Both the position numbers and the translations under genes were made by a program. From assembly GCA_000004695.1 (NCBI GenBank), contig CM000151.3:320001-384000 (forward strand): a stretch of DNA of 64,000 bases, in the 5' to 3' direction. How positions within the stretch are numbered: position 1 is the first letter of the stretch; each line of letters begins with the position of its first letter. This document shows, piece after piece, positions 17,841-51,153 of the stretch. Source of the stretch: Dictyostelium discoideum. Lineage: Eukaryota. Below the pieces are notes generated by a model that saw nothing but the letters and a program-made list of their open reading frames with translations, was not told the origin of the DNA and made no database searches.

Positions 17841-18011
17841 GGACAAAAGCCAAACTAGTAATACCTTGTGGTGTGAGGGTTTGAATAGAGAAAAATCTGG
17901 AATTTTTCTGAATATACCTTTACCAGTGGAGAGATAATCGATAGCCAACGTTCGGGAACAGAAAGCAACGATTGGAATTACAATTTACTATTACCGTACT
18001 ACTACTACTAT

Positions 18012-18059
<48 letters not shown>

Positions 18060-18296
18060 CACTTCTACAATCTTTACTATTCTTTCCAATTGGTGCTATC
18101 ATCTGGAGTTTAATTTCTATGAATCCATAACCTATCTGTTATTTTGTAACTAATTCGAGCGTATTATGCCTGCGAGAAACTCAAAAAGATATCTCAATTT
18201 TTTAATTTTTTTTTTTATTTTTTTAATTTTTTTTATTTTAATTTTTTTTTTTTTTTTTTTGAAATCTTCCCTCTTATATAATTTAAACAAATAATA

Positions 18297-18480
18297 ATGT
18301 CAACAAATAAAAAAGTTAAAACAGATAATAATAATAAAATATTCCAAGATATTATTGATTTTGAAATTTTAAGATCTATTATCAATTATTTATTAACCAG
18401 CAATAATACTAGTAATAATAATAATAGTAATCAATATAAAATTAAAAAATTTTATTTAAATAGAAATGAAAAAGCAGGTA
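18297..18480 (+). pseudogene. Family-1 N-terminal fragment (61 conserved codons), truncated at the 95-bp GC repeat
   Basis: MSTNKKVKTDNNNKIFQDIIDFEILRSIINYLLTS...FYLNRNE, then loss of homology at about 18475 followed by the inverted copy of the 5795-5885 repeat (18540-18632). Confidence 0.55.
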
Positions 18481-18872
18481 TCTATTGGTTAGATAAGCAT
18501 TCACTGATTTAGTCGATAATATTAAGATTGATGAATATAAAAAGAGATAAATTTTAGCATATAGCTTTTTATTTTAAGGGATAGGCCCCATTTTCAAAAA
18601 ATGACGGGGAACCTATGACCCTGTGTGCACCAAATACAGTAGGTTACTATGTCAACGATCTCCTTTACACAATGTCATCACCACATTCAACTTATTATGA
18701 GGCCACTGACACACCCAAAGGTACAACTTACTTTGTTTTAGTAGTTACAATAAAATTGTTCAAATTAATACACAAAATGATATGAAATATAAAAAAAATG
18801 AATATTATAATTCTATTTTTAGAATTTTTTTTTTTTTTTTAATTTATTATCATAAAAACATTTTTGGTTGTG

Positions 18873-18908
<36 letters not shown>

Positions 18909-18949
18909 AACATTAACCAGTCAGGTACGCTCTATAAACAAAATATAAT

Positions 18950-19039
18950 GTCAACAAGTAAAAAAATTAAAACAGATAATAATAATAAAATATTTCAAGA
19001 TCTTATTGATCTATAACCAATTATTTATTAACCAGCAAA

Positions 19040-19109
<70 letters not shown>

Positions 19110-19420
19110 TTTCTTTTTAAAGTTGAAAAAAAAAAAAAAAGGTATGCTACAAGAAATCAAAAAATTCTTCGAAAATTAATGAAGTTTTTTTACATTATAT
19201 AATGATAAGGAATTAGTTGATGAATTTATTAAAGAATTTAAAAATCTAATAAATAATATTTCAACAAAACAAGAACAAAAATCAAGAAACATATTTTTTA
19301 AAGAAATTTCTTTACGTATTAATATGATTCAATTCTTCTAAATACGTAAATAAGTATTTAGAAGAATTGAATCATATTAATAATCCATTTTTCAAAACAA
19401 TAATAAAGAGTTACCAATTA
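18950..19420 (+). pseudogene. Heavily deleted family-1 copy: start fragment at about 18953-19040 and C-terminal fragment at about 19195-19420
   Basis: aatgtcaacaagtaaaaaaattaaaacagataataataataaaatatttcaagatcttattgat...; later ...ttagttgatgaatttattaaagaatttaaaaatctaataaataatatttcaac...ccatttttcaaaacaataataaagagttaccaa. A 28-bp inverted duplication lies at 19318-19381. Confidence 0.5.
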
Positions 19421-25790: not shown

Positions 25791-26283
25791 CAAATGAAAT
25801 CTTTGAACCATACTTTAAAAATAATTTTAAATATCTAACAAATTAATAAAATAATTGATGATGACCATTCTTCATACAAACCAGCATTACCAAAATTATT
25901 GGACATAATTATTTATTTATTTACTTATTTAGATTTGGATGATTTGGATCAACAACAGCATCAAGTTATTTAGTAGTGATAGTGGAACATCAAAAACTAC
26001 TAATACTACACAGCTAACCAAAAGCAATAATAATCAATAATAAAAAAACTCATGGATTAATTATAGTAACAATGTTGATGACAAGAATAATTATAATTTT
26101 AATAAAAAAAAAAAAAAAAAAAAAAATCTTTTATATCTTTTTATTTTTATATTTTATTTATGACTATTAAATATTAATAAATAAAGATAAAAATGGAAAT
26201 ATATAAAAAATTTTTTTAATATTTAATATTTAATCTGAATTTTACAATCTTTTTTTTTTTTTGTTACTCTAATATTCAATTTT

Positions 26284-26480
26284 TTTTTTTTTTTTTTTTT
26301 TATTAAATTAACAATTACAGATAATATTGAACCTACTGAAATATTATTTTGTTTAGAAATAAGGCAATTTATTAAAAGATATTCTCATTTATGGATATCC
26401 AAATCTCAATAACATATGATTCAATGTCATCAATAACACAACTAATAGATTCAAATCAATATGGTATAATTAACTCTTAC
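26284..26480 (+). pseudogene. Family-2 internal fragment (region LTITDNIEPTEILF..KIFSFMD..TYDSMSSIT.LIDSNQ)
   Basis: Homology ends abruptly at 26480, where a GC-richer unrelated segment begins. Confidence 0.5.
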
Positions 26481-26760
26481 AAAAGATCCGAGTAATTTTA
26501 AAAGACCCAGAGTAATTTCCTTAAACTAACAATCAAATTAAGGAAATTAACTTTCAAAGTATTTTGTATTAAAGATTTGCATAGTCTATGTTAACTTCAT
26601 GAAGGATCCTTCTTCATATTTGGTGGGATTATAGGTTTAATTGCGTTATTCGTGGGTCAAGATCCCATGTTTTCCGCGGGCTGTTGTAATGTATATAAAT
26701 TTTTTCAATCTAATGTCTTTTTTTATTGATTAAACAAGTTCTCCCAGTATATGAATAAAA
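26480..26760. other. GC-richer non-coding segment, possibly a transposon end or LTR fragment, lying on the 3' side of the tRNA gene
   Basis: Compositional break; abuts the truncated family-2 fragment; no ORF. The identity of the element cannot be determined from this window. Confidence 0.2.
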
Positions 26761-26958
26761 AATAATTAATAGTTTTATAAATGGATTTAAATTTTAAAAA
26801 TTATTCCTTTTTAATACTTGTAAGGTTATTATTATTATTTTATTTTATTTTTTTATTTTTTTTATATTCAAAGGAATTTTAAATTATTAAAATGTTGTAA
26901 TAAATATTATATGAATTAATCGAATGAAAAAAGATTTGCAAGCATCAACTAGTTTTCT

Positions 26959-26998
<40 letters not shown>

Positions 26999-27021
26999 CA
27001 ATAAATTTTTAAAATTGAAAG

Positions 27022-27095
27022 TATTCAGAGCGGGAATCGAACCCACGACCTAATCCGTGTTAAGGATTCGTGATAACCGACTACACCATCCGAAC
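27022..27095 (-). tRNA. tRNA-Val (anticodon AAC)
   Basis: Minus strand reads GTTCGGATGGTGTAGTCGGTTATCACGAATCCTTAACACGGATTAGGTCGTGGGTTCGATTCCCGCTCTGAATA. Acceptor stem 7 bp including G-U pairs; D-arm GTGT/TCAC; anticodon stem AATCC/GGATT with loop TTAACAC; T-arm GTGGG-TTCGATT-CCCGC; A and B box-like elements present. Confidence 0.8.
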
Positions 27096-27190
27096 TAATT
27101 GATAAAATTTTTGAAAAACCAACAGTACATGCAATTAATTTTATTCCAATTCAAAAAAAAAAAAAAAAAAAAAAAAGCAATTAATTTTAA

Positions 27191-27460
27191 ACAGATCGAA
27201 AAAAAACAAACAACAACAACAATCTTTTTTTTTGATTATTTCATTTTTCATATAAAAAAGACTTAAAAAACAAATAAATAAATAAATAAACTATTTTAAA
27301 AAGCCATCTTTTTACTTTATTGGAATTAATTATTTGTTCCGTTTTGAGAATTTTGCGTAGCAAAATTTTCAAAAAAAAAGCAAAAAATAATCAGATCGAA
27401 AAAAAACAAACAACAACAAAAATCTCTTTTTTTGATTATTTCATTTTTCATATAAAAAAG
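27191..27460 (+). repeat. Two copies of an about 70-bp direct repeat (27191-27270 and 27392-27460) on the 5' side of the tRNA gene
   Basis: cagatcgaaaaaaaacaaacaacaacaa.aatct.tttttttgattatttcatttttcatataaaaaag occurs twice. Confidence 0.5.
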
Positions 27461-27819
27461 TAAACTAACCCCTCTTTTAGAGACCCTGTAAAAAAAAAAA
27501 AATTACAAATAAAATGAGATCTAGCATCTCAAGAAGAAGCAACTAATAATTGCGTTATCCAATTCAAAAAAAAAAATAAAAAAAAATTTAATTTTATTTA
27601 ATGGTATTTAATTTTTATATATTTATTATACAATTTTTAATTTATTTTAATACAATTTGAAATAAAATTTTATTTTGTTTTTATATTGAAATTTTTGTAA
27701 TTTTAATTTTAGATTTTTATAATTATAAGAATTGGTGTTTGTAAATTTGTAATTTGTAAATTGTGAGTTTTTAGAAATACAGAGTTTATGACTTTTGATA
27801 TTTATATTAAATCAATAAT

Positions 27820-28022
27820 TTTAAATTTTTAAATTGGTTTTTAACAATCATTCAAAAGTATCACAATTACCCGTTCCTTGCAGCACCAATGATTGTATTA
27901 AAATTTTGGTTATCACACTTTTGGATCGTTTTATATTAAATTTTAAATTACATATATTTGAATACATTCATCAAAATTTCGATTTTATTTTAAAGAAAAA
28001 CTCAGAAGGTGGAATATTAACT
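27820..28022 (+). pseudogene. Family-2 C-terminal fragment, interrupted by the terminal-inverted-repeat element; it continues at 30200-30300
   Basis: ...FKFLNWFLTIIQKYHN...LQILEYIHQNFDFILKKNSEGGILT | element | IKELKYFLFSSLQRDKVKISKFLFQFISISE. The two halves are collinear with 40540-40830 of the intact copy. Confidence 0.6.
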
Positions 28023-30199
<2,177 letters not shown>

Positions 30200-30900
30200 A
30201 ATTAACTATTAAAGAATTAAAATATTTTTTATTTTCATCACTTCAAAGGGATAAAGTTAAAATTTCTAAATTCCTTTTTCAATTTATTTCTATTTCCGAA
30301 ATTTGAAGCACATAAAAAATCACATAAAAATAATAAATATAATTAATAATAAAAAAAAAAAATAAAAAAAAAAAATAAAAAAAAAAAATATTGAAAATTA
30401 AAAATTTTGGTTGGGAATTAAAAAAATAAAAAATGCAGCAAAAAGCATTATTAAAATTAAATCAAACAAAAATAAATTAAATTATATTAAATTAAATCAA
30501 ATAAAATTTTTATTTTTTTTTTTATTTTTATTTTTTTTCGTTTTTATTTTTATTTTTTTTTTTTTTACTTTTATTTTTTTATTTTCATTGCCCTGCAAAT
30601 AAATCCTCACTCTTTCTTCGAATTTTATTTTAATTTGACCGTTTTATTAGCGAGAGAATTAAAAAAAAAAAAAAAAAAATTAAAAAAAATAAATAGAATT
30701 GACCTTGTAACGCGATATATACTATTATAATTATTGTAGTAGAAGTTGGTGCTACTGTATAACTACCTAAACTTTCATTTTTACAATTATTATCATTACC
30801 AAAATATCTGAATTTGATTTTAGAAAATTTAACCTCTACAAATACTACTTCCATCAATTGAATTTAAGCCTGATAAACTTGTGAGATTTATTGTTGATGC

Positions 30901-30973
<73 letters not shown>

Positions 30974-31449
30974 GAAGTAGACTAATAATTTGGTGGATGT
31001 GGTTTTTGAGTCTAATTAATTTTGATGTATTGTTACTAACTTTCATGTCAACCTTTGTTCTACCTCTAGCTAATTGATAGTAATTTTATGAATAATATTG
31101 TTAATTAATGTATCTGTAGTGCACCTAAGAAAAGCTGGATAATCTATTGTTGGTTGTGATGATAATTGTTACTAATTTAATTGAATCTCTATTTATTGTT
31201 TTCATTGTGATTATTGATATAATTTTTTTTTTTTTTTGAATTTAGTAATTGTGACAAAAAAAAAAAATAAAAAATAAAAAATGTTGAAACAAGGCTGTGG
31301 AAACCAAGAAAAAAAAAAATAAATAAAATAAAATTAAAAAAAAAAATGGTGAAATTTTAATAAAAAAAAAAAAAAAAATTTTATTTTTAAGAGCAAAGGG
31401 ATTTACTTTTTTTATTTAATTTTATTTTATTTTATTATTTTTAAAATTT

Positions 31450-31779
31450 TTGCCACAGCATCACACATCAATGAACAACAATATAGAAAATGAAGATGGT
31501 AGTGAATTAGATAAATTTGATGATAGTGAATTAGAGAAAGAGATTGCTCAATCATACAGTATTTCAACAAGTAGATTAAAAATAGCAGAAATCATTGAAA
31601 AGATTAAATCAGTAGTTAAAAGGATAAGAGAAAATGAAGAACAAAAACAAAATGTTAATTCATTTAATAAAATTATTAAATTAACAATTACAGATAATAT
31701 TGAACCTACTGAAATATTATTTTGGAAATTATTTAGAAATAAAACAATTTATAAAAAGATATTCTCATTTATGGATTGA
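31450..31779 (+). pseudogene. Family-2 N-terminal fragment (109 codons, then stop)
   Basis: MPQHHTSMNNNIENEDGSELDKFDDSELEKEIAQSYSISTSRLKIAEIIEKIKSV...LTITDNIEPTEILFWKLFRNKTIYKKIFSFMD*. Confidence 0.55.
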
Positions 31780-31937
31780 AACAATCTGATAAAAATTTAA
31801 ATAAAAAAAAAAAGTAAAGGTAATATCACTATTTTTTTTTATTTTTTTTTTTATTTTTTTTTTTTGAAATTTCGTAACTTTTTTTTTATTTTTTATTTTT
31901 TATTATTTTCATAATTTTTTGACAGCGCTTCATAACA

Positions 31938-34690
31938 ATGAACAATAGTGTAGAAAATGAAGATGATATTGATGATTGTGAATTAGAAAAAAAGAATTTA
32001 AAATCAATTAAAGAGATTGCTCAATCATTTTGTATATCAATAACTAAATTAAAAAAAGCAGAAATCATTGAAAAGATTAAATCAATAATCAAAAGAAAAA
32101 GAGAATATGAAAAAGAACAAAAACAAAAACAAAATGTTAATTCATTTAATAAAATTATTAAATTGACAATTACAGATAATATTGAACCAATTGAAATATT
32201 ATTTTGGAAATTATTTAGAAATAAAACAATTTATAAAAAGATATTCTCATTTATGGATAAACAATTCACAATAACATATGATTCAGTTTCATCAATAACA
32301 AAACTAATAGATTCGAATCAATTTGGTATAATAAAAGAAAAAGTTATCAGAAATTGTAGATATTTATATTTCAATTCAAATCCATATTCAATTAATCTTA
32401 CTCAAGATATGGAATATTTAGTGAAATTATTTTCAACGATTAATCAAGATGAAGATGAAGATGATGATGATGATGATTATTATAGATTCTATAGAAACTT
32501 TTTTAAAATAGAGAATGATTATTACAAGTCATCTGGTGCTGTATCATGTGCACTAATTTTATCAAAGAAATTACAAGTTTTCAAATTATTTGTTAATGAA
32601 TTCAATTATAAACCAACAAAAACAGATCTTTTGCATTCAATTTTTAATGGATCAAATAAATTCATTAAATATCTATTAGAATTAAATTCACCAAACTCAT
32701 TTTTATTATTAGAAAAAGAGTGCACTGAAGTTATCAAAGATTTTAATCATTTCTATACTCATGGACTTGTTCAAAGAAATAGTTTTTACAAAGGATTGTT
32801 ATGTTATTTAAATAGTATTGGTAATGATAATTATGATAGAAATCAGTACTTTGAATTATTAATAGATTGCGCTGATGAAGGAAATTATGAAATTAATGAA
32901 AAATCAACATTAAAATCATTAATCACCACTGCTAGATTAATTTTAAAATTAAAAACACCGCCACCAGAACCGATAAAAGATGAAAAAGAAGATGAAGAAG
33001 AAAAAGAACTTTCAAAAAAGGTAATCAAACCAATTACAACAATTGATGAAATTGATAACTTTATAAAGAAAATTGATAAAGTTAATTTAAAATCATTATT
33101 AGATGATCCAATCATTTTCAATAATAATGAAATTAAAAATTTTATTAAGAAACTATTGATATTATCTCAACCGATATTTTATATCCTCCTAAGAATGAAG
33201 TTTGTAATTTAATTGAAATAGCATTTAGATTTGGAATTTATGAAATTTTAGAATCATATGTAACAAATAATAGAGAAATAAAGGAATATTTTGAAAGAGT
33301 ATTATCAAGAATCATTAAATATAAATGTAGAGATGATGATTTAAAAGTTTTATTTTCACATTGTTATGATAGAAATAAAAAGATTAAATTCATTGATCAA
33401 ATAGTTGGAAGAAACATTATACAAGCCGAACCTCAATTTCAGAGTTATTTCTTGTATTTACTTGTAATTCATAATGATATAGAGTTGGTAAAATATTATT
33501 CAAATAAAGTTGGTAATCACATACAAATACAGTATACCATATCATTACTTCCACCAACCTATTATATCGAATCAATAGAGACGTTAGAATTTTTATTTTA
33601 CAATCAATGTAATTACTTTAAAGATATTTTTTATAATGATTACATCAGTACATATTATAAAAATTTAGAATTATTAAAACATTTCGAATCATTATTCAAT
33701 AAATCAAAATCATTAAATCAATTAGGTAGTGGTAGTGTCAGTGGTAGTGATGGTAGTGATAGTAGTGATGGTAGTGGTAGTGGTAGTGGTAGTGGTATAC
33801 ATGCTTATAATGGCCTTGTTAGCTTTGTAATTGATGGATACTTTAAAGATAAAAGAAATTATTATTTGACATTTAAAAGAAATAATAATTATTCTGATTT
33901 TGTTAATCACTTTGCTTCAAATGCACAACTCTACTGTAATGATAAATTTCGTTTTGAACTTTTATTCACTACTTCAGATTTATCATTTAAACATTCAATC
34001 AACTTTCAAACATTAAGAAATTTAGTAATTAATGGACATGCTTTTGTGAAGGAGCCAAATAGTCAAACAGAATCTTATTCAAAGGAGCTTTTAAAATTTA
34101 TGGATTGGATATATACAAATTATAATAATGAATTGAAAAATGGTATATTTGGTTTCAAAACACAAAGATATAGATATCATTTACTCATTGCAATTGATAG
34201 CTTTGATTCCAACAACAACAACAACAGTATCGTTAATAAATACTTTAATGGTAATGAAGAAGAGAATGATGTTTATATTCAAAGATTAGGATTATTATTA
34301 AATGATGTCATCCTACTCACTCCATATTTATTTGAAATTAATAATTTGAAATTTTTAAATTGGTTCTTAACAATCATTCAAAAGTATCACAATTCTTCAT
34401 TATTAATTCCTACAGGTACATTTTATTATATTAAAAATATGGTTTTGATATTTGGGGATCATATTATACTTTATTCAAAATTACAAATACTTGAATACAT
34501 TCATCAAAATTTCAATTTCATTTTAAAGAAAGAATCAGATGGTGGAATATTAACTATTAAAGAATTAAAATCTTTTTTATTTTCATCACTTACCAGAGAT
34601 GCAGTTAAAATTTGTAAATTCCTTTTTCAATTCATTACCATTACAAAAAAAGAATTTGAAACATATTCAAATAAAAAATATAATAAATAA
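31938..34690 (+). pseudogene. Family-2 paralog, copy E. Near full length but with a frame discontinuity at about 33170-33200 (ORFs 31938-33212 and 33452-34690 lie in different frames).
   Basis: Collinear throughout with 38067-40898. The segment IEIAFRFGIYEILESY... is encoded out of frame with the upstream ORF. This could be a genuine frameshift pseudogene or a sequence error. Confidence 0.55.
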
Positions 34691-35092
34691 AATAAATATA
34701 ATTAATAATATTAAAAAAAAAAAAAAAAAACGAAATCAGGGAAGTTCCAAACAAAAAATCATATTTCTATTTTTTATTATTGTTTTTAATTCTTTACAAA
34801 CTATCATTTACTAATCGAAATTGATAGATTTGATTTCAATCGCTCCACTTGTGAATGTTGTTACTTACCTCGTGACGAAACTGTTGGACCAAACAGTAGA
34901 CATCATGATGCAATGGTAAATATCTTTGAAACATAATTAAAAACTAAATTATTTTTATCATATTGATTGATTATTATCATTATTATTATTTTTATAATTA
35001 ATTTTTAACCAATGTTCAAATGATTGATTATTATTTGAAATTGTTAATGATATAAAATTATACCACTTTTTTAAAACTAATATATTACATTT

Positions 35093-35134
<42 letters not shown>

Positions 35135-35406
35135 TGCACTTGATCAATATTTTTAATTTTTTTTTATTTCTTGCCCAGTTATTATTTAAAATAAAAAATT
35201 CATCTCGCTTGAGAAATACTATTTTTAATTTTTAATTTTTTCAAGTTACAACTGAAAAATTTAATTAAATTTGGCAATTTCTTATTTTTTAAGTTTTTGT
35301 CGCACTAAAAGAAGTTTTTTCATTTTTTTTTAAATTTTTTTTTAATTTTTTAATTTTTATTTGTTAATTTTTTCATTTTTTCTTTTTTGGACAGTATCAC
35401 ACAACA

Positions 35407-36600
35407 ATGAACAATAATATAGAGAATGATGATAGTATGGATGATGGTGAATTAGAGAAAAAGGATTTAAAATCAATTATAGAGATTGCTCAATCATATA
35501 GTATTTCAACAATTAGTTTAAATAAAGCAGAAATCATTGAAAAGATTAAATCAATAGTTAAAAGAAAAAGAGAATATGAAGAAGAACAAAAACAAAAACA
35601 AAATGTTAATTCATTTAATAAAATTAATAAATTAACAATTACAGATAATATTGAACCTACTGAAATATTATTTTGGAAATTATTTAGAAATATAGTAATT
35701 TATAAAAAGATATTCTCATTTATTGATAATCGATTCTCGTTAACATATGATTCAATGTCATCAATAAATAAATTAATTGATTCAAATCAATTTGGTATAA
35801 TAAAAGAAAAGGTTTATAGAAATTGTAGATATTTACTTTTGAATCCATTTACTATTACTTTAGAAATAGAATATTTATTGAAATTATTTTCAACAATTAA
35901 GAGTTGGTAAAATATTATTCAAATAAACTTGGTAATCACATACAAGCAAATGTTAACATATTATTACTTCCACCAACCTATTATATCGAATCAATAGAGA
36001 TGTTAGAATTTTTATTTTACAATCAATGTTATTACTTTAAAGATATTTTTTATAAGTTCAAAACGAAATTTATCATTACAGTAGAGTTGTGCATTTGAAA
36101 CAAAGTGATTTACAAAATCTGAATAATTCTTATTTCTTTTAAACATTTTGAATCATTATATCCACTGCTTTAGAATTATCATGTAAACATTCAATCAACT
36201 TTCAAACATTAAGAAATTTAGTAATTAATAGACATGCTTTTGTGAAGGAGCCAAATTATCAAACAGTATCTTATTCAAAAGAATTTTTAAAATTTATGGA
36301 TTGGATGTATACAAATTATAATAATGAATTGAAAAATGGTGGTTTCACTGAAGAAATACATCAATATCATTTACTCATTTCGATTGGTAGATTTGATTCC
36401 AACAACAACAATTACAACAACAACAACAACAACGACAGCATTAATAAATACTATAATGGTAACGAAGAAGAGAATGATGTTTATATTCAAAGATTACGAT
36501 TATTATTAAATAATGTTATCCAACTCACTCCTCATCTATTTGAAGTTAATAATTTTAAATTTTTAAATTGGTTATTAACATTCATTATTTAAAAAGCAAA
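35407..36600 (+). pseudogene. Family-2 paralog, copy F, with large internal deletions (fragments 35407-35910, 35904-36098 and 36242-36592)
   Basis: The N-terminal 167 codons are intact-looking, then jump to the LVKYYSNKLGNHIQ segment, then to the KEPNYQTVSYSKEFLKFMDWMYTNYNNELKNGG... segment. Confidence 0.55.
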
Positions 36601-36656
36601 CATGGAGAACAAATCTTTTTTTTATTCATACTTCTTTTAATAATTTATTATATAAT

Positions 36657-37039
36657 TTAATTATCTTGACAATATTTTCCACCCTGTGTTGTATCATATG
36701 ATTGTCCATTATTATTGCTATCATCAACCAATACACCATCATTTGAGGTTGAGTCACGATAACATTCCTCTATTTGGGTATTTTCTGATTCTTTGATTCT
36801 TTCAATGGTTTGTTGATCACGAGCATCTTGTCTGTTGGAAGAAGCATCTCTATTATTTGGATTACTATTGTTGGTTTCATCTCCTATTCCAAAGATATTT
36901 TGTACGACTTCAGCTCCCTTTTCAAAAACTACGTCTCTTACTAATAATAATTATTATTGTTAAGTTTAATAGTTAATAAATCTAATATTTAATGACTTGG
37001 AATTGAATATTTAATCCCATACTAATACATACTACCCAT
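36657..37039 (-). CDS. Small 2-exon gene (about 97 aa), unknown function, N-terminal Met-Gly: exon 1 37033-37039, intron 36941-37032, exon 2 36657-36940
   Basis: MG / IRDVVFEKGAEVVQNIFGIGDETNNSNPNNRDASSNRQDARDQQTIERIKESENTQIEECYRDSTSNDGVLVDDSNNNGQSYDTTQGGKYCQDN*. The intron is GTATGTA...TTATTATTAG (92 nt). This exon has no Met, so the ORF track misses it. Confidence 0.4.
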
Positions 37040-37521
37040 TTTTATTATTGATGATGATTTTATAGTTTAAATTATTTTGATAGAGGAATAAAATATATAT
37101 TTTTAATTTTAAATGATAAATTAATGAATGAATGTTTTTTTTTTATTTTTAATATTTTTTTTTTTTTTTATAAAATTAATAAAATAAATTTTCTTCGAAC
37201 TAATTATAATAATTAATTCAATTTTCATCACACAAAAGAAATTAACAGTTTGAAAATTTTCAAACGTCAAGTGTGGGTAAAATAAAAAAATACAAACAAG
37301 TAAAACAGATAAAAAAAAACTAACACTACTCAGGAGATATCTCCTGTGTTGTACAGTGTGTGGGGCGATGTTTTTTTTATTTATTTTTTTAATTAAAAAA
37401 AACTATTTGAATACCACAAAACTTAAAAATAAAGAAGCACTTGTGTGATGAATTTATCAGTTTTATGTTCAATTTTTTAGGGTATAAATAAAAATTGTAT
37501 TATGAAGAGTATTACATAAAT

Positions 37522-37567
<46 letters not shown>

Positions 37568-37786
37568 TAAAATTATTAATTAATTTAATTATTTATATAT
37601 TTGAAAAAAAAAACGATGTAATTTTTTAAAAAATTGGATGTTGAAATTGTTGAGGAAACGTTTTCATTGTGACTTATATAATTAGAAAAAAATACTTAGA
37701 TATAATAAAAAATTAAAAAAAAAAATTAAAAAAATATTCTATATTAAATAATAAATTTTTTTGTTATTTATTAATAATAAATTTTA

Positions 37787-37820
<34 letters not shown>

Positions 37821-38066
37821 TAAAAATTCATTTTTTAGAAAGTTATGAGTTTTATTTTGTAGTTCCGATAAAAAAAAAAAAAAAAACATTTGAGACCTGT
37901 CAATTATATTTGTTTTTATTTTTATAATTTATTTATTAAAGCACTAATAAATAAAAATAAAAATAAAATAAATAAAAAATAAAAATAAAATTAATAAAAA
38001 CACTTTTTTTTTTTTTCACATTTTCATTAATTTTTTTTTTTTTTTTTTGTAAGACAGTATTGCACA

Positions 38067-40898
38067 ATGAAAAATAATAATAAAAATAATAATAATAATA
38101 ATTTAGAAAATGAAAATGATATTGATGATAGTGAATTAGAAAAAAAGAGTTTAAAATCAATTAAAGAGATTGCTCAATCATATAGTATATCAACAACCAA
38201 TTTAAAAAAAGCAGAAATAATTGAAAAGATTAAATCAATAGTTAAAAGAAAAAGAGAATATGAAGAAGAACAAGAACAAAAAGAAAATGTTAATTCATTT
38301 AATAAAATTATTAAATTAACAATTACAGATAATATTGAACCCACTGAAATATTATTTTGGAAATTATTTAGAAATAAAGCAATTTATAAAAAGATATTCT
38401 CATTTATGGATAACCAATTCACAATAAGTTATGACTCAATAGATGATATATGTAAATTAGTAAATTCAAATCAAGTCAATTTAATAAGAGAAAAAGTTTA
38501 TAGAAATTGTAGATATTTACACTTCCATCCAAATCAGTATCATAACCATATTGCGGATATTCATTTTTTAGTGAAATTATTTTCAACAATTAAAGAAGAC
38601 GATTATAGATTCTATAGAAACTTTTTTAATGAAGAGAATGATTATTTTAGTTCACCAAATCATATAACACAAGCATCAATTATTTCAAAGAGATTACAAG
38701 TTTTTAAATTATTTGTAAATGAATTCAATTATGAACCAACAAAAAAAGATCTTCTATATTCAATTATTTCAGGTTCAAACAAATTCATTAAATATATATT
38801 AGAATTAAATTCACCAAATTCAGTTTTATTTGATAGAAAAATAGTTGATACTGATTTTAAAGATTTCTATGCTAAAGGATTTGGAAGTAATTATCCTACT
38901 AAAGAAGATAGTTTTTTCAAAGGGTTTTTATGTTTTTTAAATAACATTAACCTTGATGAAAATGATAGAGATCAATATTATAAGTTATTAATTGGTCAAT
39001 CCATTCATAACCCATATTCAGGTTATGGTTTTCAAATTAATGAAAAGTCAACATTAAAATCATTAATCACCACTGCTAGATTAATTTTAAAATTAAAAAC
39101 ACCATCCGCATCATACAAAGTACAATTTAAAGAAGAATGTTTCCCAAAAGTATTAAAAAAAATCGAAGCAGTCGCAACAATTGAAGAGATTGATAATTTC
39201 ATAAAGAAAATTGATAAAGTGAACTTAAAATCATTTTTAGATGATCCTATCAATTTTAATAATAGTGATGATAATAATGAAATTAAAAATTTTATAAAGA
39301 AATTATTAAAATTATATTATTTAAATTTTAGTATTGAACTATCAAATACTTTATACTTTTGTTATTATCATGAAGATTCCAATGATGATTATAAAGTTTT
39401 TCATTTTCATCATTTAATTGAAACTGCATTTAGATTTGGAAATTATGAAATTTTAGAATCATATGAAACAATCAATTGCCTACATTTTTTACCAGGAATT
39501 GGTCAAGATCATAGTAATCAAAATCACGATAGTCATCGTTATAAAGTTTTATTTTCACATTGTTTTAATAAAGGGAAAAAGATTAAATTCATTGATCACA
39601 TAATTCAAAGAACCATTCAACAACCAGAACCTGGATTTCAAATTTATTTCTTGTATATGCTTGTAATTCATAATAATATAGAGTTGGTAAAATATTATTC
39701 AAATAAAGTTGGTAAAAATATACAAGTAGAATCTATTGGAAGATTAACTCCACCAACCTATTATATCGAATCAATAGAGATGTTAGAATATTTATTTTAC
39801 AATCAATGTAATTACTTTAGAGATGTGTTTTTTGATGGCAAAAAAAGTACATTTTATAAAAATTTAGAATTATTAAAACATTTTGAATCATTATTAAATA
39901 AATCAAAATTAGGATGTGGTAGTGGTAATTGTAGTGGTATGCATTCTTATAATGGTCTTGTTAGCTTTATAAAAGGTATGGGCTTTGGAAGTGGTATATA
40001 TGGCTCTTTTGAGTATAAATCAAATAAGAATTATGTAGATTTTGCAAAACACTTTGCTTCAAATCCACAAATTTACAAGGGTTATACATTTGATTACGAG
40101 CATTTGTTTTTATTATTTACTACTCCTGTATCATCATCATCATCATTTTCATCTAAAATTTCAATTAACTTTGAAACTTTAAGAAATTTATTAATTAACG
40201 CATATTCTTTTGGAAGAAGCCCAATCTTTGAAAGATCAAAACCAACACACACACAACACCATTATTCAAGGGAATATTTAAAATTTTTTGATTGGATGTG
40301 TATAAATTATAGTCATGAAATTGGAGATCGAAGTTGTAGATTCTTGTATACAAATGAAGAAAGATATAAATACCATTTACTTATTGCAGTTGATAGAATA
40401 GATCTTGACAAAGATAATTATTATAATGGAGGTAATGATCAAGAGGAAGGAAATATTAGTGTTTATATTGAAAGATTGAATTCCTTAACATATGATGTCA
40501 TATATTTCACCCCATATTTATATGAAATTAATAATTTTAAATTTTTAAATTGGTTTTTAACAATCATTGAAAAGTATCACAATTCCAAATCAACATCATC
40601 TCATGATAAATCTATTATGGAGTCAATGGTTTTCACATTTATGGAATATATTACATTACATTCAAAATTACAAATACTTGAATACATTCATCATAATTTT
40701 CATTTCATTTTAAAGAAACAATCAGATGGTGGAATATTAAATATTGGAGAATTAAAATCTTTTATATTTTCATCACTTAAAAGAGATTCAATTAAAATTT
40801 CTAAATTCCTTTTTCAATTTATTACCATCACTAAAAATGAATTTGGTAAATATTCAAATGAAAAAACAAAATCATATTTTAAAAATATGTTTAAATAA
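38067..40898 (+). CDS. Family-2 paralog, copy G (943 aa, intact): SAP/HeH-like N-terminal motif, ankyrin-like repeats, conserved C-terminal domain of unknown function
   Basis: Single uninterrupted ORF. LKSIKEIAQSYSISTTNLKKAEIIEKIKSIV fits the SAP helix-extension-helix pattern (L..L.V.EL...A.....GKKAELIERL). Segments such as LLYSIISGSNKFIKYILELNSP and LVIHNNIELVKYYSNKVGKNIQ resemble ankyrin repeats. Conserved leader gacagtattgcacaATG. Confidence 0.7.
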   Translation: MKNNNKNNNNNNLENENDIDDSELEKKSLKSIKEIAQSYSISTTNLKKAEIIEKIKSIVKRKREYEEEQEQKENVNSFNKIIKLTITDNIEPTEILFWKLFRNKAIYKKIFSFMDNQFTISYDSIDDICKLVNSNQVNLIREKVYRNCRYLHFHPNQYHNHIADIHFLVKLFSTIKEDDYRFYRNFFNEENDYFSSPNHITQASIISKRLQVFKLFVNEFNYEPTKKDLLYSIISGSNKFIKYILELNSPNSVLFDRKIVDTDFKDFYAKGFGSNYPTKEDSFFKGFLCFLNNINLDENDRDQYYKLLIGQSIHNPYSGYGFQINEKSTLKSLITTARLILKLKTPSASYKVQFKEECFPKVLKKIEAVATIEEIDNFIKKIDKVNLKSFLDDPINFNNSDDNNEIKNFIKKLLKLYYLNFSIELSNTLYFCYYHEDSNDDYKVFHFHHLIETAFRFGNYEILESYETINCLHFLPGIGQDHSNQNHDSHRYKVLFSHCFNKGKKIKFIDHIIQRTIQQPEPGFQIYFLYMLVIHNNIELVKYYSNKVGKNIQVESIGRLTPPTYYIESIEMLEYLFYNQCNYFRDVFFDGKKSTFYKNLELLKHFESLLNKSKLGCGSGNCSGMHSYNGLVSFIKGMGFGSGIYGSFEYKSNKNYVDFAKHFASNPQIYKGYTFDYEHLFLLFTTPVSSSSSFSSKISINFETLRNLLINAYSFGRSPIFERSKPTHTQHHYSREYLKFFDWMCINYSHEIGDRSCRFLYTNEERYKYHLLIAVDRIDLDKDNYYNGGNDQEEGNISVYIERLNSLTYDVIYFTPYLYEINNFKFLNWFLTIIEKYHNSKSTSSHDKSIMESMVFTFMEYITLHSKLQILEYIHHNFHFILKKQSDGGILNIGELKSFIFSSLKRDSIKISKFLFQFITITKNEFGKYSNEKTKSYFKNMFK

Positions 40899-43439: not shown

Positions 43440-44990
<1,551 letters not shown>

Positions 44991-45061: not shown

Positions 45062-46283
45062 AAATACCAACCAAAAAAAACAGATCTTTTGCATTCGATT
45101 GTTTCAGGTTCAAATAAATTCATTCAATATATATTAGAATTAAATTCACCGGATGCAGTTTTATTTGAAAATAGTTGATACTGATTTTAAAGATTTCCAT
45201 TCCAGAGGATTTAGTAAAAACTATCCTACAAAAAAAGATCGTTTTTTCAAAGGGTTTTTATGTTATTTAAATACCATTAAAGTTGATGACAATAATAGAT
45301 CAATATTATCAATTATTAATTGGTACATCCATTCGTAATCTATATTTGGATAATTGTTTTGAAATTAATGAAAACTCAACATTAAAAACATTAATCACCA
45401 CTGCTAAATTAATTTTAAAATTAAAAACACCACCATCACAATCATCACCATCTTTAGATTTAAAAGTAAAAGAAAAAGTAGAACAAGAAAAAAAAGAAGA
45501 GGAAGAAGGAAAAAAAGAAAAGGTTTTTCCAAAATTTATAAAAAATATCAAAGCAGTTGAAACAATTGAAGAAATTGATAATTTCATAAAGAAAATTGAC
45601 AAAGTGAACTTAAAATCATTTTTAGATATTCCAATCAACTTCAGTAATAGTGATAATAATGAAATTAAAAATTTTATAAAGAAATTATTAAAATTATATT
45701 TTTCAAATTCTGATACTAAAGTATCAAAAATTTTATATTTCTGTTATTACCATGAAGAATCCAATTATGATTATAAAACTATATTCCCCTCTACTCTTCA
45801 TTTGATTGAAACTGCATTAAGATTTGGAATTTATGAAATTTTAGAACCAAAAAAAACAATGGGGTGTCATAATTTCTTACCAAAAATCGGTCAAGATTCT
45901 AATTATCAATATTATAATAGTCATCGTTATAAATTTTTATTTTCACATTGTTATGATAAAGAGAAAATGATTAAATTCATTGATCGTATAATTCAAAGAA
46001 CCATTCAACAACCTGAACCTGGATTTCAAATTTATTTCTTGTATATGCTTGTAATTCATAATGATATAGAGTTAGTAAAATACTATTCAAATAATGTTGG
46101 TAAACATCTACAAATATATTCTCCTCGGGAAATATTTCCACCAACCTATTATATCGAATCAAAAGAGATGTTAGAATATTTATTTTACAATCAATGTAAT
46201 TACTTTATAGATGTTTATTTTAAATCTTACAAAAGTTCATATTTTAAAAATTTAGAATTATTAAAACATTTCGAATTATTATT
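45062..46283 (+). pseudogene. Family-2 paralog, copy H, 5' half (5'-truncated at about 45062). Interrupted at 46283 by the Tdd-4-like transposon; the 3' half resumes at 50128-51153.
   Basis: 45062-46283 is collinear with 38740-39900 of the intact copy (…PTKKDLLHSIVSGSNKFIQYILELNSP... to ...NLELLKHFELL). 50133 onwards gives ...SKSVNQLGDSCGGSIGICSGRGIHSSNGLVSLIKG..., matching ...NKSKLGCGSGNCSGMHSYNGLVSFIKG... of the intact copy. The ORF-track Met at 50131 is fortuitous. Confidence 0.65.
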
Positions 46284-46486
46284 TGTTGTAGGGAATTTTC
46301 CATAAAATTTCACTACAGTAGCGTAGTGAATTTTATTATTTAATTTCACTACAGTAGCGTAGTGAAAAAAAAAAATCACTGACCTTAAATTTTTTTTTTT
46401 TTCAAAAAACAAATAAAGTTTATTAAATTGAAATTTTATTTTTTGTTTTAATTATTATTTTATTTATTTTTATTATAATTATTGTT

Positions 46487-46526
<40 letters not shown>

Positions 46527-46667
46527 CAATTTTTTTTTTTTAAATTTTTTTCAATTTTTATTTGTTTATTAAATTGTAATTTTATTTTTTGTTTTAATTA
46601 TTATTTTATTTATTATTATTGTTAATTTTTTTTTTTTTTCAATTTTTTTTTTTTTATTTTATTTTTA

Positions 46668-47010
46668 TTAATTTATTTTTATTAACTCCCTGAGTTGTTC
46701 AATTGCTTGATTTACCATATCACTGTAAACACTGCACACAATTGAATTTTTTCTAGCTTTGTTACCTCTGGTGCATTTGATGTTTTTGCATTTTCCTTTG
46801 TATACAAAAAAGTCCAAATATAATTCGTTTTCTATTACAGTTTTTACACAATGTTGGTGAAATTGTTTTGATTTTAATTTTAATGCTTCTAACATCATAT
46901 TTGGATTTTTAACGATTAAAGCATCACCACTATTTACATATAGTACTTTGGCTGCTTTTTCGAGGAATTTAGTCAAATTTTCCTCTGAATCTAACTATTC
47001 TTCATTGCCA
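46668..47010 (-). CDS. Second small ORF inside the Tdd-4-like element (about 100 aa, unknown function)
   Basis: ORF 46668-46976: MTKFLEKAAKVLYVNSGDALIVKNPNMMLEALKLKSKQFHQHCVKTVIENELYLDFFVYKGKCKNIKCTRGNKARKNSIVCSVYSDMVNQAIEQLRELIKIN. A possible upstream mini-exon (MIEELIDSIKLLRNLAIEYGNEE) lies at about 46985-47055. Confidence 0.3.
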
Positions 47011-47302
47011 TATTCAATGGCTAAATTTCTTAAGAGTTTTATCGAATCTATTAATTCTTCGATCATTCTTTTTTTTTGAAATTTTTTTTTATTTTGTTTT
47101 TTCAATTTTTTTTTTTTATTTTGTTTTTTCAATTTTTTTTAAGTTTTATTTTTTTTTATTTTTTTTTATTTTTTTTAACAAATGTAATTTTTTTTTATTT
47201 TTTTCAATTTTTTTTTTTTTTTAATTTTTAATTTTTTTTTTTTTTTTTAATTTTTTGTGTTGATTTGTGTTTTTTTTGTTTTTTTGATTTGGCCACTTGT
47301 TT

Positions 47303-49800
47303 TTATTTTCTAATTTCCCCATACCCCCTTCTATTAATTGCAACCAAATCAAGTTCTAATTTTTGTGTCCTTGTTAACTTTGTTTTTGCAACTTTTTTTG
47401 AAGGTATCACATTAACGATTTTTCCTATTGATGGTGATTTGGAAGGTGATTTAAATGGTGATTTAAAAGGTGAATTGGAAGGTGATTTAAATGGTGAATT
47501 GGAAGGTGAAATGGATGGTGATTTGGAAGGTGATTTAAATGGTGATTTGGAAGGTGATTTAAATGGTGATTTAAATGGTGAATTGGAAGGTGAAATGGAT
47601 GGTGATTTGAGAGGTGATTTGGATGGTTTAGAATGTGATTTTAAAGGAGGTTTATTAACAATTGGTATCTTATGAGGACGGCCTCTGAGACGTTTAACAG
47701 TTGTTACTATACCACTACCAGATTGTGGTATAGTATACGATGGTATTATTTGCACTTGAGGTATTGGTGGTACTATTTCTTTTAAATTCATATCCTTTCT
47801 CAAACAATTCATTAAATTTGGCGCTGTTGGATTATTATTTAAAAATGGGAGTATTTCTTCTTGTTCCATTTCATTATTGAGTTTGTGTTGAAATGGATTA
47901 TCGTTAATGATAGGTGGAATATTTGATGGATTGTTAAGAGCATCTTCCAAAACCCTAAATGGATCATTTTGTGTTACCAATTGATGCAAGTTGAAATTGG
48001 ATAAATCCTTACCAAGATTTTTAATAAACTGAACCAGAAATTCAATAACTTTCCCATCATTATTTAAATAAAGACCAGAAGTAAAAGAATCAATATCTTT
48101 TTGTATGTTTGGCGATGTTCTAAAAATATCAACTGTTGATTGTTTATAAAGAACCAACTTGTTACCTCCTACAAAACCAGAGTATAAACCTTTTTTTTGA
48201 AGGCTATTGATTCCATCTTCCAAAAATTCAAGTTTATAAAGTTGTTTAGTGTCTTCCTGTATTACCTTATGAATTTTACACAAAATCAATATTTTCTATT
48301 AGAATTAAATATAAAATTTGTTAATTATTACTGTTTCATATATTATTAATCTTTATGTTTTAATTACTTACATTATTTTTTTTAATTTCTAGAAAGAGTA
48401 CAGTATCACCAACTTTCAATCCCTTTGGTGGTTTTGAATTCCATTGATTTTGGTAACTTGTGAGATTTTCAAGAATAATAGCTGTTCTTTCTTCTTTTGA
48501 AACATCTGAAACACCAATTGATTGAGAGTCTTGTTCTGATTGAACATTAATAAACAAAGGAACAATACCAACAGCTTGAGATGGTTTCATTTTAATTGTT
48601 CTTGTTTTTGTATTATTGTAATCATACAAAGCTTGTTTTAATAGTTCAGAAAGAGACCTAGAAGTACCATCAAGAAAACTAAAATTTATTTATAAATGAT
48701 TAATTAATAAACATATCGATAATTTATATTGTTCACAATATCATACTCTTGTTGTTTTAATTTTGAGATCCTCTCCTTGATAGTTCGATTCAATCTTTCT
48801 ACCATACCTTGAGTTGTTGGTGTACGAGGAGCTCCATGTGCTGACTTGGAGCCTGGAAAAAGTTTTAGGAATTCTTTTTGGACTTTGTTTTTAAATTCAC
48901 GTCCATTATCGCAGTGCCATACTTTCACAGGTTTGCCAAAGTACGTGAGAGCCAAAAAATTGTATATGGGAACTGTTCTCTTTGTTGTCAAACATCTAAA
49001 AAATAAATGATAATTAAAATAAAAAAAGAAAACTAATAAATTAATAAATAAAAAATAAATACCTTCCAGTAGCAAATTTTGTAAAAGAATCTATGCATAG
49101 AATAATGTAAACAACATCGGTGTCGTACGGTTGTACAGAGTCATATTGGATAAGATCATCTAGTTTAGTTAGTATCTTTTCATTATCATCATCGTATGTA
49201 ACTTTTTCTTTATGTTCACCTTTAATTGATGTTAAATCATAAACCAATCTTGAGTATTCCTCGGTATCTACAATTGGAGCAAAATCCTTTGTTATACCTA
49301 TTAATTTATTTAAATTATTAAAAGAGTTTTAATATAAAAGTTACAAAACATCATATAAAAATGATTGATACCAAACCTTTTATTCTATTTCGTTGGCAAA
49401 TGTCACACGTATCTACTGCATCAGATACAAAAGAATACAATCCCATATTATAATATTTAGTCTTGTAGTTCCCATAGGTTGCATCTCTTCCTATATGACC
49501 TTTATGCATTTCTTCCCAGAGTGATACCATTCTATAATCATTAATTACTTCTAAACACACTTCTTTTGATATATTTCTATCTCCGCCACAATTCATGACT
49601 TTTTTTTCAATTCTAAATAATTTTTCTTTTCTGTTTCTGTTTTTTATTGGTCAGAATTTAAAAAATGATTGTGTTATTGTAAGGAAAAATATTTACTCAT
49701 CATGTAAAAATTTATAATTTTTATGTTTAGTATTTTCAAAATTATTATCTTCAATAAATTTTAAATAATTTATAATTTCATTTATTTTATCTTGTTTCAT
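47303..49800 (-). CDS. Retroviral-type (rve) integrase-like transposase of the Tdd-4-like element, about 6 exons. HHCC zinc finger, DDE core, C-terminal extension with an RGRP AT-hook-like motif and (S/P/K)-rich repeats.
   Basis: Exon 1 49696-49800 (MKQDKINEIINYLKFIEDNNFENTKHKNYKFLHDE). HHCC: ...WEEMHKGHIGRDATYG...CDICQRNRIK. Core: ...YIILCIDSFTKFATGR / CLTTKRTVPIYNFLALTYFGKPVKVWHCDNGREFKN...HGAPRTPTTQGMVERLNRTIKERISKLKQQE / SLSELLKQALYDYNN...GLKVGDTVLFLEIKKNN. Tail: ...VTTVKRLRGRPHKIPIVNKPPLKSHSKPSKSPLKSPSISPSNSPFKSP.... Introns 60-120 nt with GTAAAT/GTATTT/GTATGA/GTAAGT...AG boundaries. Confidence 0.7.
47440..47640. repeat. Tandem 18-bp coding repeat (ggtgatttaaatggtgat / ttggaaggtgat...) encoding the KSPSKSPFKSP tail of the integrase. 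The plus-strand ORF 47265-47675 is its antisense artefact.
   Basis: Direct reading. Confidence 0.6.
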
Positions 49801-49815
49801 TTTGGGAAAATGAAA

Positions 49816-49850
<35 letters not shown>

Positions 49851-50127
49851 TGTTGGGGAAAAAAAAAAAAAGTTTTGGCGCAAAAAAAAAAAAAAAAATA
49901 AAATAAAAAAAAAAAAAAATAAAATAAAAAAAAAAAAAAATAAAAAAACTTATATAGAACTAATAATCAAATAAAAGATAATAATTTAATAAACTTTATT
50001 TGTTTTTTGAAAAAAAAAAAATTTAGGGTCAGTGATTTTTTTTTTTCACTACGCTACTGTAGTGAAATTAAATAATAAAATTCACTACGCTACTGTAGTG
50101 AAATTTTATTGAAAATTCCCTACAACA

Positions 50128-51153
50128 TTATTGGATATATCAAAATCAGTAAATCAATTGGGTGATAGTTGTGGTGGTAGTATTGGTATTTGTAGTGGTA
50201 GAGGTATTCATTCTTCTAATGGTCTTGTTAGCTTAATAAAAGGTATAACCTTTGGAATTGGTAGTAATGATTTTTTCGACTTTAAAAGAAATAAGAATTA
50301 TGCAGATTTTGCAAAACACTTTGCTTCAAATCCACAAATTTACAATAGTGATAAATTAGATCACAATGAATTGTTTTTATTATTCACTACTGCTGTATCA
50401 TCATCATCATCATCATTTTCATCTAAAATTCCAATTCACTTTGAAACATTAAGAAATTTATTAATTAATGCAAAAGCTTTTGGAAGAAAACCAATCATTG
50501 AAAGAACAAAACCAACACCCATACAATGCCATTATTCAAAAGAATATTTAAAATTTTTGGATTGGATGTATATAAATTATAATAATGGAATTGAAGATCA
50601 AGATCAATTCTTAGGTATGATTAAAGAAAGATATAAACACCATTTACTTATTACAATTGATAGATTAAATCTTAACAATAACAATTATTTTGATGGTAAT
50701 GAAGAAGGAGATACAATTTATATTGAAAGATTAGGTTTCTTAACAAATGATGTCATACGTTTCACCCCATATTTATATGAAATTAATAATTTTAAATTTT
50801 TAAATTGGTTTTTAACAATCATTCAAAAACATCACAATTCTATGCCAACAACCGAACATCATATTTTATGTATTAAAGAAATGATTTACACATTTATGGA
50901 ATATATTATATCAAATTCAAAATTAGAAATACTTGAATACATTCATCAAAATTTTCATTTCATTTTAAATAAAAAATCAAATGGTGGAATATTAAATATT
51001 AAAGATTTGAAATCTTTTTTAATTTCATCACTTAATAGAGGTTCAATTAAAATTTCTAAATTCCTTTTTCAATTCATTACCATCACTAAAAATGAATTTG
51101 AAAAAAATTTAAATGAAAAAACAAAATCTTATTTTAAAAATATGTTAGAATAA
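50128..51153 (+). pseudogene. Family-2 paralog, copy H, 3' half (C-terminal about 340 codons), downstream of the Tdd-4-like insertion
   Basis: See 45062-46283. Ends ...ISKFLFQFITITKNEFEKNLNEKTKSYFKNMLE*, as in the intact copy. Confidence 0.65.

Follow-up and report, generated by a model that had tools for sequence, protein, structure and literature searches.

Introduction

Tdd-4 of Dictyostelium is, by published account, the first eukaryotic DNA transposon that was found to carry a retroviral-type integrase. Wells (1999) reportedly described it with 145-bp inverted terminal repeats and ~15 SPXX repeats, and the element is said to contain, besides five GT-AG introns, a sixth one that is non-canonical (AT-AA) and to undergo alternative splicing. 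In the survey of Bao et al. (2010; PMC2836005), TDD-4 is listed in Table 2 as AAFI02000006.1(356458-352615), 3,844 bp on the minus strand, and is credited with >10 copies, a 5-bp target site duplication (TSD) and terminal inverted repeats (TIRs) of 260 bp. According to the same source, Tdd-5 likewise has a 5-bp TSD, while metazoan Ginger2 elements have a 4-bp TSD, an RTATAY target preference, TGTNR termini and transposases without GPY/F or YPYY motifs.

Here, we examined a 64,000-nt stretch of Dictyostelium discoideum AX4 chromosome 2 (the window), which almost certainly harbors a full-length, recently inserted Tdd-4, the founding member of the Ginger2/TDD DNA transposons, with its integrase-like transposase. 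The identification itself is already known, and the copy lies in the annotated reference genome; what we add is modest, namely a polymorphism between strains and an odd second open reading frame.

Results

Read directly from the sequence, the transposon occupies positions 46284-50127, which bears out the 3,844 bp that a first-pass annotation of this DNA had assigned to it. Its ends pair as inverted repeats over ~146 bp with two mismatches and one single-base indel (left TIR, 46284-46429, plus strand; right TIR, 49983-50127, minus strand). The first-pass annotation had rightly called these repeats near-perfect, but its length of ~105 bp was an underestimate. Weaker AT-rich complementarity continues beyond this part to about 243-320 bp, and it is such a degenerate extension that the published 260 bp counts in. 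The left end starts with TGTTG, in agreement with the TGTNR rule, the termini read TG...CA, and the 16-nt terminus TGTTGTAGGGAATTTT occurs twice in the whole window, at the two element ends. Each TIR further holds a pair of subterminal repeats, (AA)TTTCACTACAGTAGCGTAGTGAA, located at 46308-46330 and 46344-46366 on the left (together 46308-46366, plus strand, 36-bp spacing) and at 50045-50067 and 50081-50103 on the right. These repeats—23-25 nt long, partly palindromic and present in four exact copies in the window versus none expected by chance—are candidate binding sites for the transposase.

TTATT stands on either side of the element (46279-46283 and 50128-50132), as previously claimed. By our own estimate, two 5-bp flanks match by chance in ~0.4% of cases in such AT-rich DNA, yet the question is settled by an empty site: in the D. 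discoideum assembly GCA_054883475.1, the orthologous locus lacks the element, contains a single TTATT and encodes an intact protein of 672 aa (17121-19139 of locus L004). When the element and one TTATT are removed from the window, exactly this orthologous sequence is obtained. The pre-insertion allele that had been suggested as a check on the TSD therefore exists, and its exactness identifies the event as a simple, evolutionarily recent insertion.

The element sits antisense in one gene of an uncharacterised tandem family, splitting it into a 5′ half (45286-46283) and a 3′ half (50133-51153), both on the plus strand. The corresponding reading frames (45283-46305 and 50131-51153) connect without a frameshift to give ...KHFELL-L-DISKSVNQLGDSCGG...; the in-frame join had been recognized before, but LDI was missing from the junction as then quoted. 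Once joined, the protein runs collinear to the paralog encoded at 38067-40898, a single alignment with 66% identity crossing the junction, just as had been proposed for the host frame after removal of the element. A Pfam search of the host gene found no domain. The AX4 annotation includes the 3′ half in a chimeric model, DDB_G0271156, for which the right TIR of Tdd-4 supplies the first 38 residues.

On the minus strand, a gene model of six exons and five GT-AG introns (60-79 nt) yields a transposase of 715 aa. Exon 1 (49697-49800) begins with the ATG at 49800, the start codon and junctions being the same in the independently annotated protein P0014. Exon 2 (49377-49636) contains the H2C2 zinc finger (H79, H82, C112 and C115, at 49384-49515), exon 3 (49063-49297) bears D142 (VYDLTS), exon 4 (48747-48995) bears D229 (WHCDNGREF) and E266 (GMVERLN), and these three acidic residues form the DDE triad. 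In the model, they are followed by exon 5 (48372-48678) and by exon 6 (47303-48295), which encodes aa 386-715 with the stop codon and whose product agrees with P0014. The introns lie at 49637-49696, 49298-49376, 48996-49062, 48679-48746 and 48296-48371 (GTAAGT...AG). In the tail encoded by exon 6, motif counts revealed an AT-hook-like RGRP motif (47675-47686) as well as SPXX repeats, 16 in tandem (47426-47617); a text search of the literature for SPXX repeats in a Dictyostelium transposon returned no match. All parts named in the first-pass annotation (HHCC zinc finger, DDE core, RGRPHKIP and SP-repeats) are hence present, and the integrase frame, as anticipated, is uninterrupted over about six exons.

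The spliced product equals P0014, which is annotated independently at four loci of GCA_054883475.1, at 714 of 715 residues. The sole difference is residue 314, a lysine here and in the labelled protein XP_629668, and a threonine in P0014 as well as in P0001, P0002, P0003, P0015, P0018 and P0019. Substitutions diagnostic of the window copy are 48586 A and 46880 A (minus-strand reading).

Domain searches of the kind recommended earlier gave a graded outcome. Pfam Integrase_H2C2 scored 32.1 bits, over its curated cut-off of 25.5, with the finger having an H-x2-H spacing that is shorter than the usual H-x3-7-H. The DDE core was matched by rve (E 7e-6) and rve_3 (E 9e-5), but at 26.6 and 22.7 bits both remained under their curated cut-offs of 32.6 and 26.5, respectively, the matches being only partial because of a ~35-residue insertion between the first two core strands. 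By sequence, the core also matched the integrase catalytic cores of RSV, HIV-1, HTLV-2 and PFV in PDB (E about 1e-5). Integrase domains were the only ones that Pfam found in the product: neither reverse transcriptase (RT), RNase H, protease or polymerase B domains nor the chromodomain proposed as a search target were detected, and a regex search of the 715 aa for GPY/F and YPYY motifs came back empty.

A second small ORF had been noted in the element as well, and it is there, but not as a clean frame. ORF2 (46668-47066, minus strand) comprises 23 codons from an ATG at 47066 (MIEELIDSIKLLRNLAIEYGNEE) up to a TAG at 46995-46997, past which the same frame stays open for another 108 codons (46994-46671) before a stop at 46668-46670. 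This in-frame TAG is found in every copy examined, including the copy in locus L001 and the AX4 gene model P0003. With a GC content of 0.26-0.28, compared with 0.06-0.14 in the flanking spacers, ORF2 is real coding-like sequence. Gene callers offered GT-AG introns, either 54 or 66 nt long, that would skip the TAG and give products of 114 and 110 aa; we rejected them, since the segment removed is itself coding-like in composition and the donor (GTTAGA) is poor. No Pfam entry matched ORF2 at E ≤ 0.1, and an exhaustive representative search brought up no relatives outside Tdd-4, the sole other candidates, P0039 and P0040, being spurious matches to translated tandem repeats. Nor did we detect an ORF2 homolog in the Tdd-5 loci L003 and L009, both of which are truncated or interrupted. 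A single-sequence AlphaFold prediction was unusable (pLDDT 42). In ORF2, the window copy carries K where the copies in L001 and L005 carry E.

How does this element relate to described ones? Our product contains, at aa 74-329 and without a single mismatch, the 256-aa sequence labelled TDD4(XP_629668) in Additional file 1 of Bao et al. (2010), and the window element equals Bao's TDD-4 in span and orientation, while the other copies measured 3,815-3,831 bp. Species, size, 5-bp TSD, TG...CA termini and the 256-aa H2C2 and DDE sequence are all shared and nothing of substance differs, the window element being a copy of Tdd-4, in line with the Tdd-4/Ginger2-like label of the first-pass annotation, whose interpretation holds in nearly all respects. 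The ~146-bp TIRs, five GT-AG introns and 16 SPXX repeats seen here also agree with the figures reportedly given by Wells.

The terminus is common to the copies in L001, L005, L006, L007 and L008. Three of the other copies have clean 5-bp TSDs (TCATC, CATAT and ATGAC), which with TTATT makes four independent copies; this count leaves out the copy in L006, whose 5-bp flanks do not match. That the TIRs would be conserved in other genomic copies is thereby borne out, with termini kept and duplications of differing sequence. The L006 copy adjoins another Tdd-4 fragment and looks rearranged. Between the window copy and that in L005, we counted five substitutions in 3,821 bp (0.13%, or 99.87% identity), whereas the two strains show a 0.30% difference in orthologous host DNA. 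Locus L002 holds a Tdd-4 copy that is 89.5% identical and truncated just before ORF2.

Tdd-5 (AF298206) has the same 16-nt terminus (at 3665 of L003 and 1480-1495 of L007) and the same domain order, but is only 54% identical in the 256-aa zinc-finger/DDE region and about 43% overall, and the tail with RGRP and SPXX is not conserved. Metazoan Ginger2 elements such as Ginger2-1_NV share with Tdd-4 an H2C2 and DDE transposase devoid of GPY/F or YPYY, TGTNR termini and TIRs measuring tens to hundreds of bp; unlike these elements, with their 4-bp duplications at preferred RTATAY targets, Tdd-4 duplicates 5 bp, with no obvious motif among its four sites. The integrases of retroviruses and Gypsy LTR retrotransposons possess a homologous catalytic core and zinc finger, but Tdd-4 lacks a reverse transcription module, LTRs and GPY/F, and moves as DNA. 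A TIR-bounded element with TGTNR...CA ends, an H2C2 and DDE protein, no RT or RNase H and neither of the two motifs has the features of the Ginger2/TDD group, and it is the identity with the TDD4 sequence in Bao's tree on which we base this placement.

Discussion

How might this transposon work? Tdd-4 would encode a retroviral-integrase-like DDE transposase composed of an N-terminal H2C2 finger, an RNase-H-fold core (D142, D229 and E266) and a C-terminal tail, with the AT-hook-like motif and the 16 SPXX repeats, that is likely to bind AT-rich DNA. In this scheme, the paired 23-25-nt subterminal repeats of each TIR would be occupied by the protein, which would make its cuts at the TG...CA ends, upon which the ends would be joined to the target with a 5-bp stagger, whose repair would leave the 5-bp duplication.

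An integrase-like protein with weak database matches to Gypsy-type polyproteins (P0011-P0013) could be thought to derive from an LTR retrotransposon (Skipper/DGLT-like) or a Polinton, of which the feature would be a piece or derivative that retained the integrase only. Yet, the terminal repeats are inverted rather than direct, Pfam shows neither RT nor RNase H, protease or polymerase B domains in the product, and the element is 3.8 kb in size and has an exact empty site, making such an origin exceedingly improbable. The empty site could itself be read in the opposite direction, as a precise excision from the other strain with no insertion in the AX4 lineage: cut-and-paste elements do excise, and the locus was compared in only one other strain. 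Excision of DDE cut-and-paste elements, however, as a rule leaves behind the duplication, with some bases added or lost, whereas here exactly one TTATT, an intact frame and no footprint are seen, and we regard this course of events as very unlikely. This copy may have entered the AX4 lineage once that had separated from the lineage of the GCA_054883475.1 strain.

Is the window copy still mobile? Its transposase frame is intact and near-identical to the family consensus, and, as far as its sequence tells, this copy may be autonomous. Conversely, the element might be a structurally complete but immobile relic, disabled by K314, by the E-to-K exchange in ORF2 relative to L001 and L005, or by host silencing, given that K at position 314 contrasts with T in seven other proteins and that, according to a review (PMC5633606), there are no detailed studies of how these DNA transposons are expressed and controlled. 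However, K314 is no unique lesion, since the labelled TDD4 protein XP_629668 carries it as well; the frame is uninterrupted and all but one of its residues match a protein kept at four loci; the TIRs differ at just three positions; and another strain lacks the insertion, which is thus recent. Taken together, immobility appears rather unlikely to us. Transcription of the Tdd-4 ORFs is documented, with a collective 25-fold upregulation of 19 elements in an rblA mutant (PMC3386910). That family copies have diverged less (0.13%) than host alleles (0.30%) points to a recent spread and suggests that Tdd-4 is possibly active now.

With the TAG in its frame, ORF2—if needed for transposition—would have to be expressed by splicing or readthrough. 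Its 108 downstream codons may encode a Tdd-4-specific accessory protein, produced via unconventional splicing or stop-codon readthrough. The joint proposal, that Tdd-4 is currently active in laboratory Dictyostelium and that ORF2 gives rise to an accessory protein, is a tentative one, which we hold possible though short of probable.

For users of the reference genome, DDB_G0271156 is a chimera that begins in the terminal repeat of a transposon and ought to be handled as one half of a gene that has been disrupted. An empty site this exact, in turn, offers a clean sign of recent insertion and a marker of strain lineage. Historically, Tdd-4 anchors the Ginger2/TDD group, which published work has used in arguments on the origin of LTR retroelements.

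Insertion into a tandemly repeated host gene

A transposon of 3,844 bp occupies window positions 46284-50127 and is bordered on both flanks by a TTATT target site duplication (TSD; 46279-46283 and 50128-50132), coordinates that uphold the length and duplication given in the first-pass annotation. Does this arrangement reflect a simple insertion? Removing the element together with one TTATT brings the host ORFs at 45283-46305 and 50131-51153 into frame (...KHFELL-L-DISKSVNQLGDSCGG...). As previously proposed from collinearity with an intact paralog, the rejoined protein aligns with that encoded at 38067-40898 in one uninterrupted piece (66% identity); further upstream paralogs also align. The decisive evidence is the empty site, which the first-pass annotation had suggested seeking in other strains. 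A look-up of the paralog's protein by exact match located the orthologous region (L004) in D. discoideum assembly GCA_054883475.1 (contig JBTAPE010000001.1), which matches window 28000-54000 collinearly (99.1-99.9% identity) and lacks the element. Across the site, 80 bases are identical to window 46244-46283 joined to 50133-50172 and contain TTATT only once, and the host gene there is an intact 672-aa ORF. L004 holds the pre-insertion allele; the insertion is polymorphic between strains.

The window lies on AX4 chromosome 2, and the insertion has left its mark on the AX4 annotation. Gene model DDB_G0271156 (P0041, 372 aa; window 49960-50170) starts inside the right terminal inverted repeat (TIR; MIVLLTNNQIKDNNLINFICFLKKKKFRVSDFFFSLRY) of Tdd-4, which supplies residues 1-38, and is then spliced to the remaining 3′ half of the split host gene, with which it shares 99% identity: a chimeric model, and an annotation artefact of the insertion.

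As to the surroundings, a tandem array at 24164-40895 comprises four or more additional host-gene paralogs, complete or partial (35-66% amino acid identity), in which no Pfam domains were found. Just upstream of the host gene, on the plus strand, lie fragmentary ORFs from a Tc1/mariner-type DDE_3 transposase (43509-44852; …LLVMDNAPIHGG…FLPSYSPELNPIERFFGYIK…); both strains have them, with PF13358 assigned to the L004 gene at 15209-16693. About 195 bp at 28479-28674 are missing from the other strain's orthologous region, at a break between alignment blocks.

Termini and identity with Tdd-4

The element starts with TGTTGTAGGGAATTTT and ends with its reverse complement, a 16-nt terminus absent elsewhere in the window. 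In the inverted-repeat alignment (46284-46429 against 49983-50127), the TIRs differ by two mismatches and one single-T indel over ~146 bp; they are near-perfect, as noted before, but longer than the ~105 bp then assigned. Further inward, the match fades to ~80% AT-rich similarity, traceable to 243-320 bp. Wells (1999) reportedly described 145-bp terminal repeats for Tdd-4. A TIR length of 260 bp is listed by Bao et al. 2010 (PMC2836005). Within each TIR, a partly palindromic 25-nt repeat, AATTTCACTACAGTAGCGTAGTGAA, occurs twice in identical form at 36-bp spacing (four in the window, zero expected by chance). Directly inside the left TIR lies a ~70-bp AT-rich subterminal internal direct duplication (46405-46480 and 46561-46630), its units set apart by long poly-T runs.

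The identification as Tdd-4 holds at residue level: all 256 residues of the labelled TDD4 (XP_629668; Bao et al. 2010, Additional file 1), including K314, form an exact substring of the spliced product. The labelled TDD5 in the same file is 54% identical over this region and represents the group matching at 43-44% (proteins P0004 and P0005). Tdd-5 ends in the exact 16 nt of Tdd-4, TGTTGTAGGGAATTTT (L003 3665-3680; L007 1480-1495), whereas the transposases are only ~43% identical and the rest of the TIR differs. Table 2 of Bao et al. (PMC2836005) gives TDD-4 as AAFI02000006.1(356458-352615), with >10 copies and a 5-bp TSD. This minus-strand span of 3,844 bp shares length and orientation with the window element, while other full-length copies measure 3,815-3,831 bp because homopolymer tracts vary; this suggests, without proving, that the window element is the very copy tabulated. 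The initial observation and its interpretation were both correct, and element, family, evolutionary significance and genomic copy are already known from the literature and reference annotation.

Transposase and second ORF

The transposase is encoded on the minus strand in six exons (ATG at 49800, stop at 47303-47305; 715 aa), separated by five GT-AG introns of 60, 79, 67, 68 and 76 nt. Although derived from frame continuity only, these junctions equal those of P0014, a transposase annotated independently at four GCA_054883475.1 loci and differing only in having T for K314. In Pfam, Integrase_H2C2 scored above its cut-off; rve and rve_3 matched the DDE core below theirs, so that of the domains previously named for checking, rve found a sub-threshold counterpart and the chromodomain none, nor were RT or RNase H detected. 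A PDB sequence search matched the integrase cores of RSV, HIV-1, HTLV-2 and PFV, with the DNG and VER motifs aligned. The predicted catalytic residues are D142, D229 and E266, and the predicted zinc ligands H79, H82, C112 and C115. RGRP is located at residue 589, and residues 612-675 consist of 16 SPXX units in perfect tandem; GPY/F and YPYY motifs are absent from the 715-aa product. The integrase ORF of about six exons, HHCC finger, DDE core and AT-hook-like tail of the first-pass annotation were all recovered.

The second small ORF (ORF2) exists, but is interrupted. On the transposase strand, 236 bp downstream of its stop, 23 codons (MIEELIDSIKLLRNLAIEYGNEE) are followed by an in-frame TAG and 108 more open codons. 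This TAG recurs in the L001 copy, and AX4 model P0003, in which exon 6 is spliced to the MIEELID segment, terminates there; the TAG is therefore not a defect of the window copy. GC content is coding-like (0.26-0.28, versus 0.06-0.14 in adjoining spacers), and we estimate the chance of 108 stop-free codons in such AT-rich DNA at ~3e-5. ORF2 had no Pfam match, no relatives beyond Tdd-4 copies in an exhaustive search, and no usable model from structure prediction. Introns proposed by gene callers to bridge the TAG were judged unconvincing. ORF2 is probably a real coding sequence. Its 23-codon segment could represent exon seven of the transposase gene, which would agree with the six introns reportedly described for Tdd-4 by Wells in 1999.

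Proposed mechanism and probable recent spread

How did the element move? Its structure, the flanking duplications and the empty site are directly observed. The explanation with the best support is a conventional DDE cut-and-paste cycle, wherein the integrase-like transposase would recognise the subterminal repeats, presumably by binding them with the help of its AT-hook/SPXX tail, which would suit AT-rich DNA, and would cut the target with a 5-bp stagger. We infer this binding and chemistry, and likewise the competence of the window copy.

Three insertions of one 758-760-bp non-coding element (CACAGC...GCTGTG; two of the three 100% identical) interrupt the Tdd-4 copy L001 in GCA_054883475.1 (3108-3867, 5299-6056 and 7108-7867), the first flanked by TA/TA and the second accompanied by a 30-bp deletion; AX4 DDB_G0282355 (P0015) also runs into this element, within its SPXX region, and the window lacks it. 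L009 6800-8541 is a 1,742-bp internally deleted derivative that keeps both termini, joins the N-terminal part of the integrase to the C-terminal end of ORF2 and sits beside an interrupted Tdd-5. At L006 (5985-6589), an inverted fragment of another Tdd-4, from the exon-2 region to the terminus, abuts a full-length copy for which matching 5-bp flanks were not found, a rearrangement or recombination between copies. A third assembly, GCA_054859385.1, contains at L002 (1438-1823 and 3686-6840) an older Tdd-4 variant (89.5% nucleotide identity; protein P0002, 92%) and, adjoining it, an uninterrupted host-gene paralog; the variant is truncated on its 3′ side by an LTR-retrotransposon polyprotein gene.

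In AX4, ~19 annotated Tdd-4 elements show a joint 25-fold de-repression when rblA is mutated (PMC3386910), and Tdd elements make up ~0.5% of the genome (PMC5633606). Conservation of the TIRs extends to other copies: L001, L005 and L007 share the termini and differ in their duplications (TCATC, CATAT and ATGAC, respectively). L007 is orthologous to AX4 DDB_G0268958, so some insertions are common to both strains. Between the window copy and L005 there are 5 substitutions in 3,821 bp, compared to 65 in 21.8 kb (0.30%) when orthologous stretches of host DNA from the two strains are aligned. Tdd-4 copies at different sites are hence more alike than alleles of the host locus, which fits a recent spread of Tdd-4.
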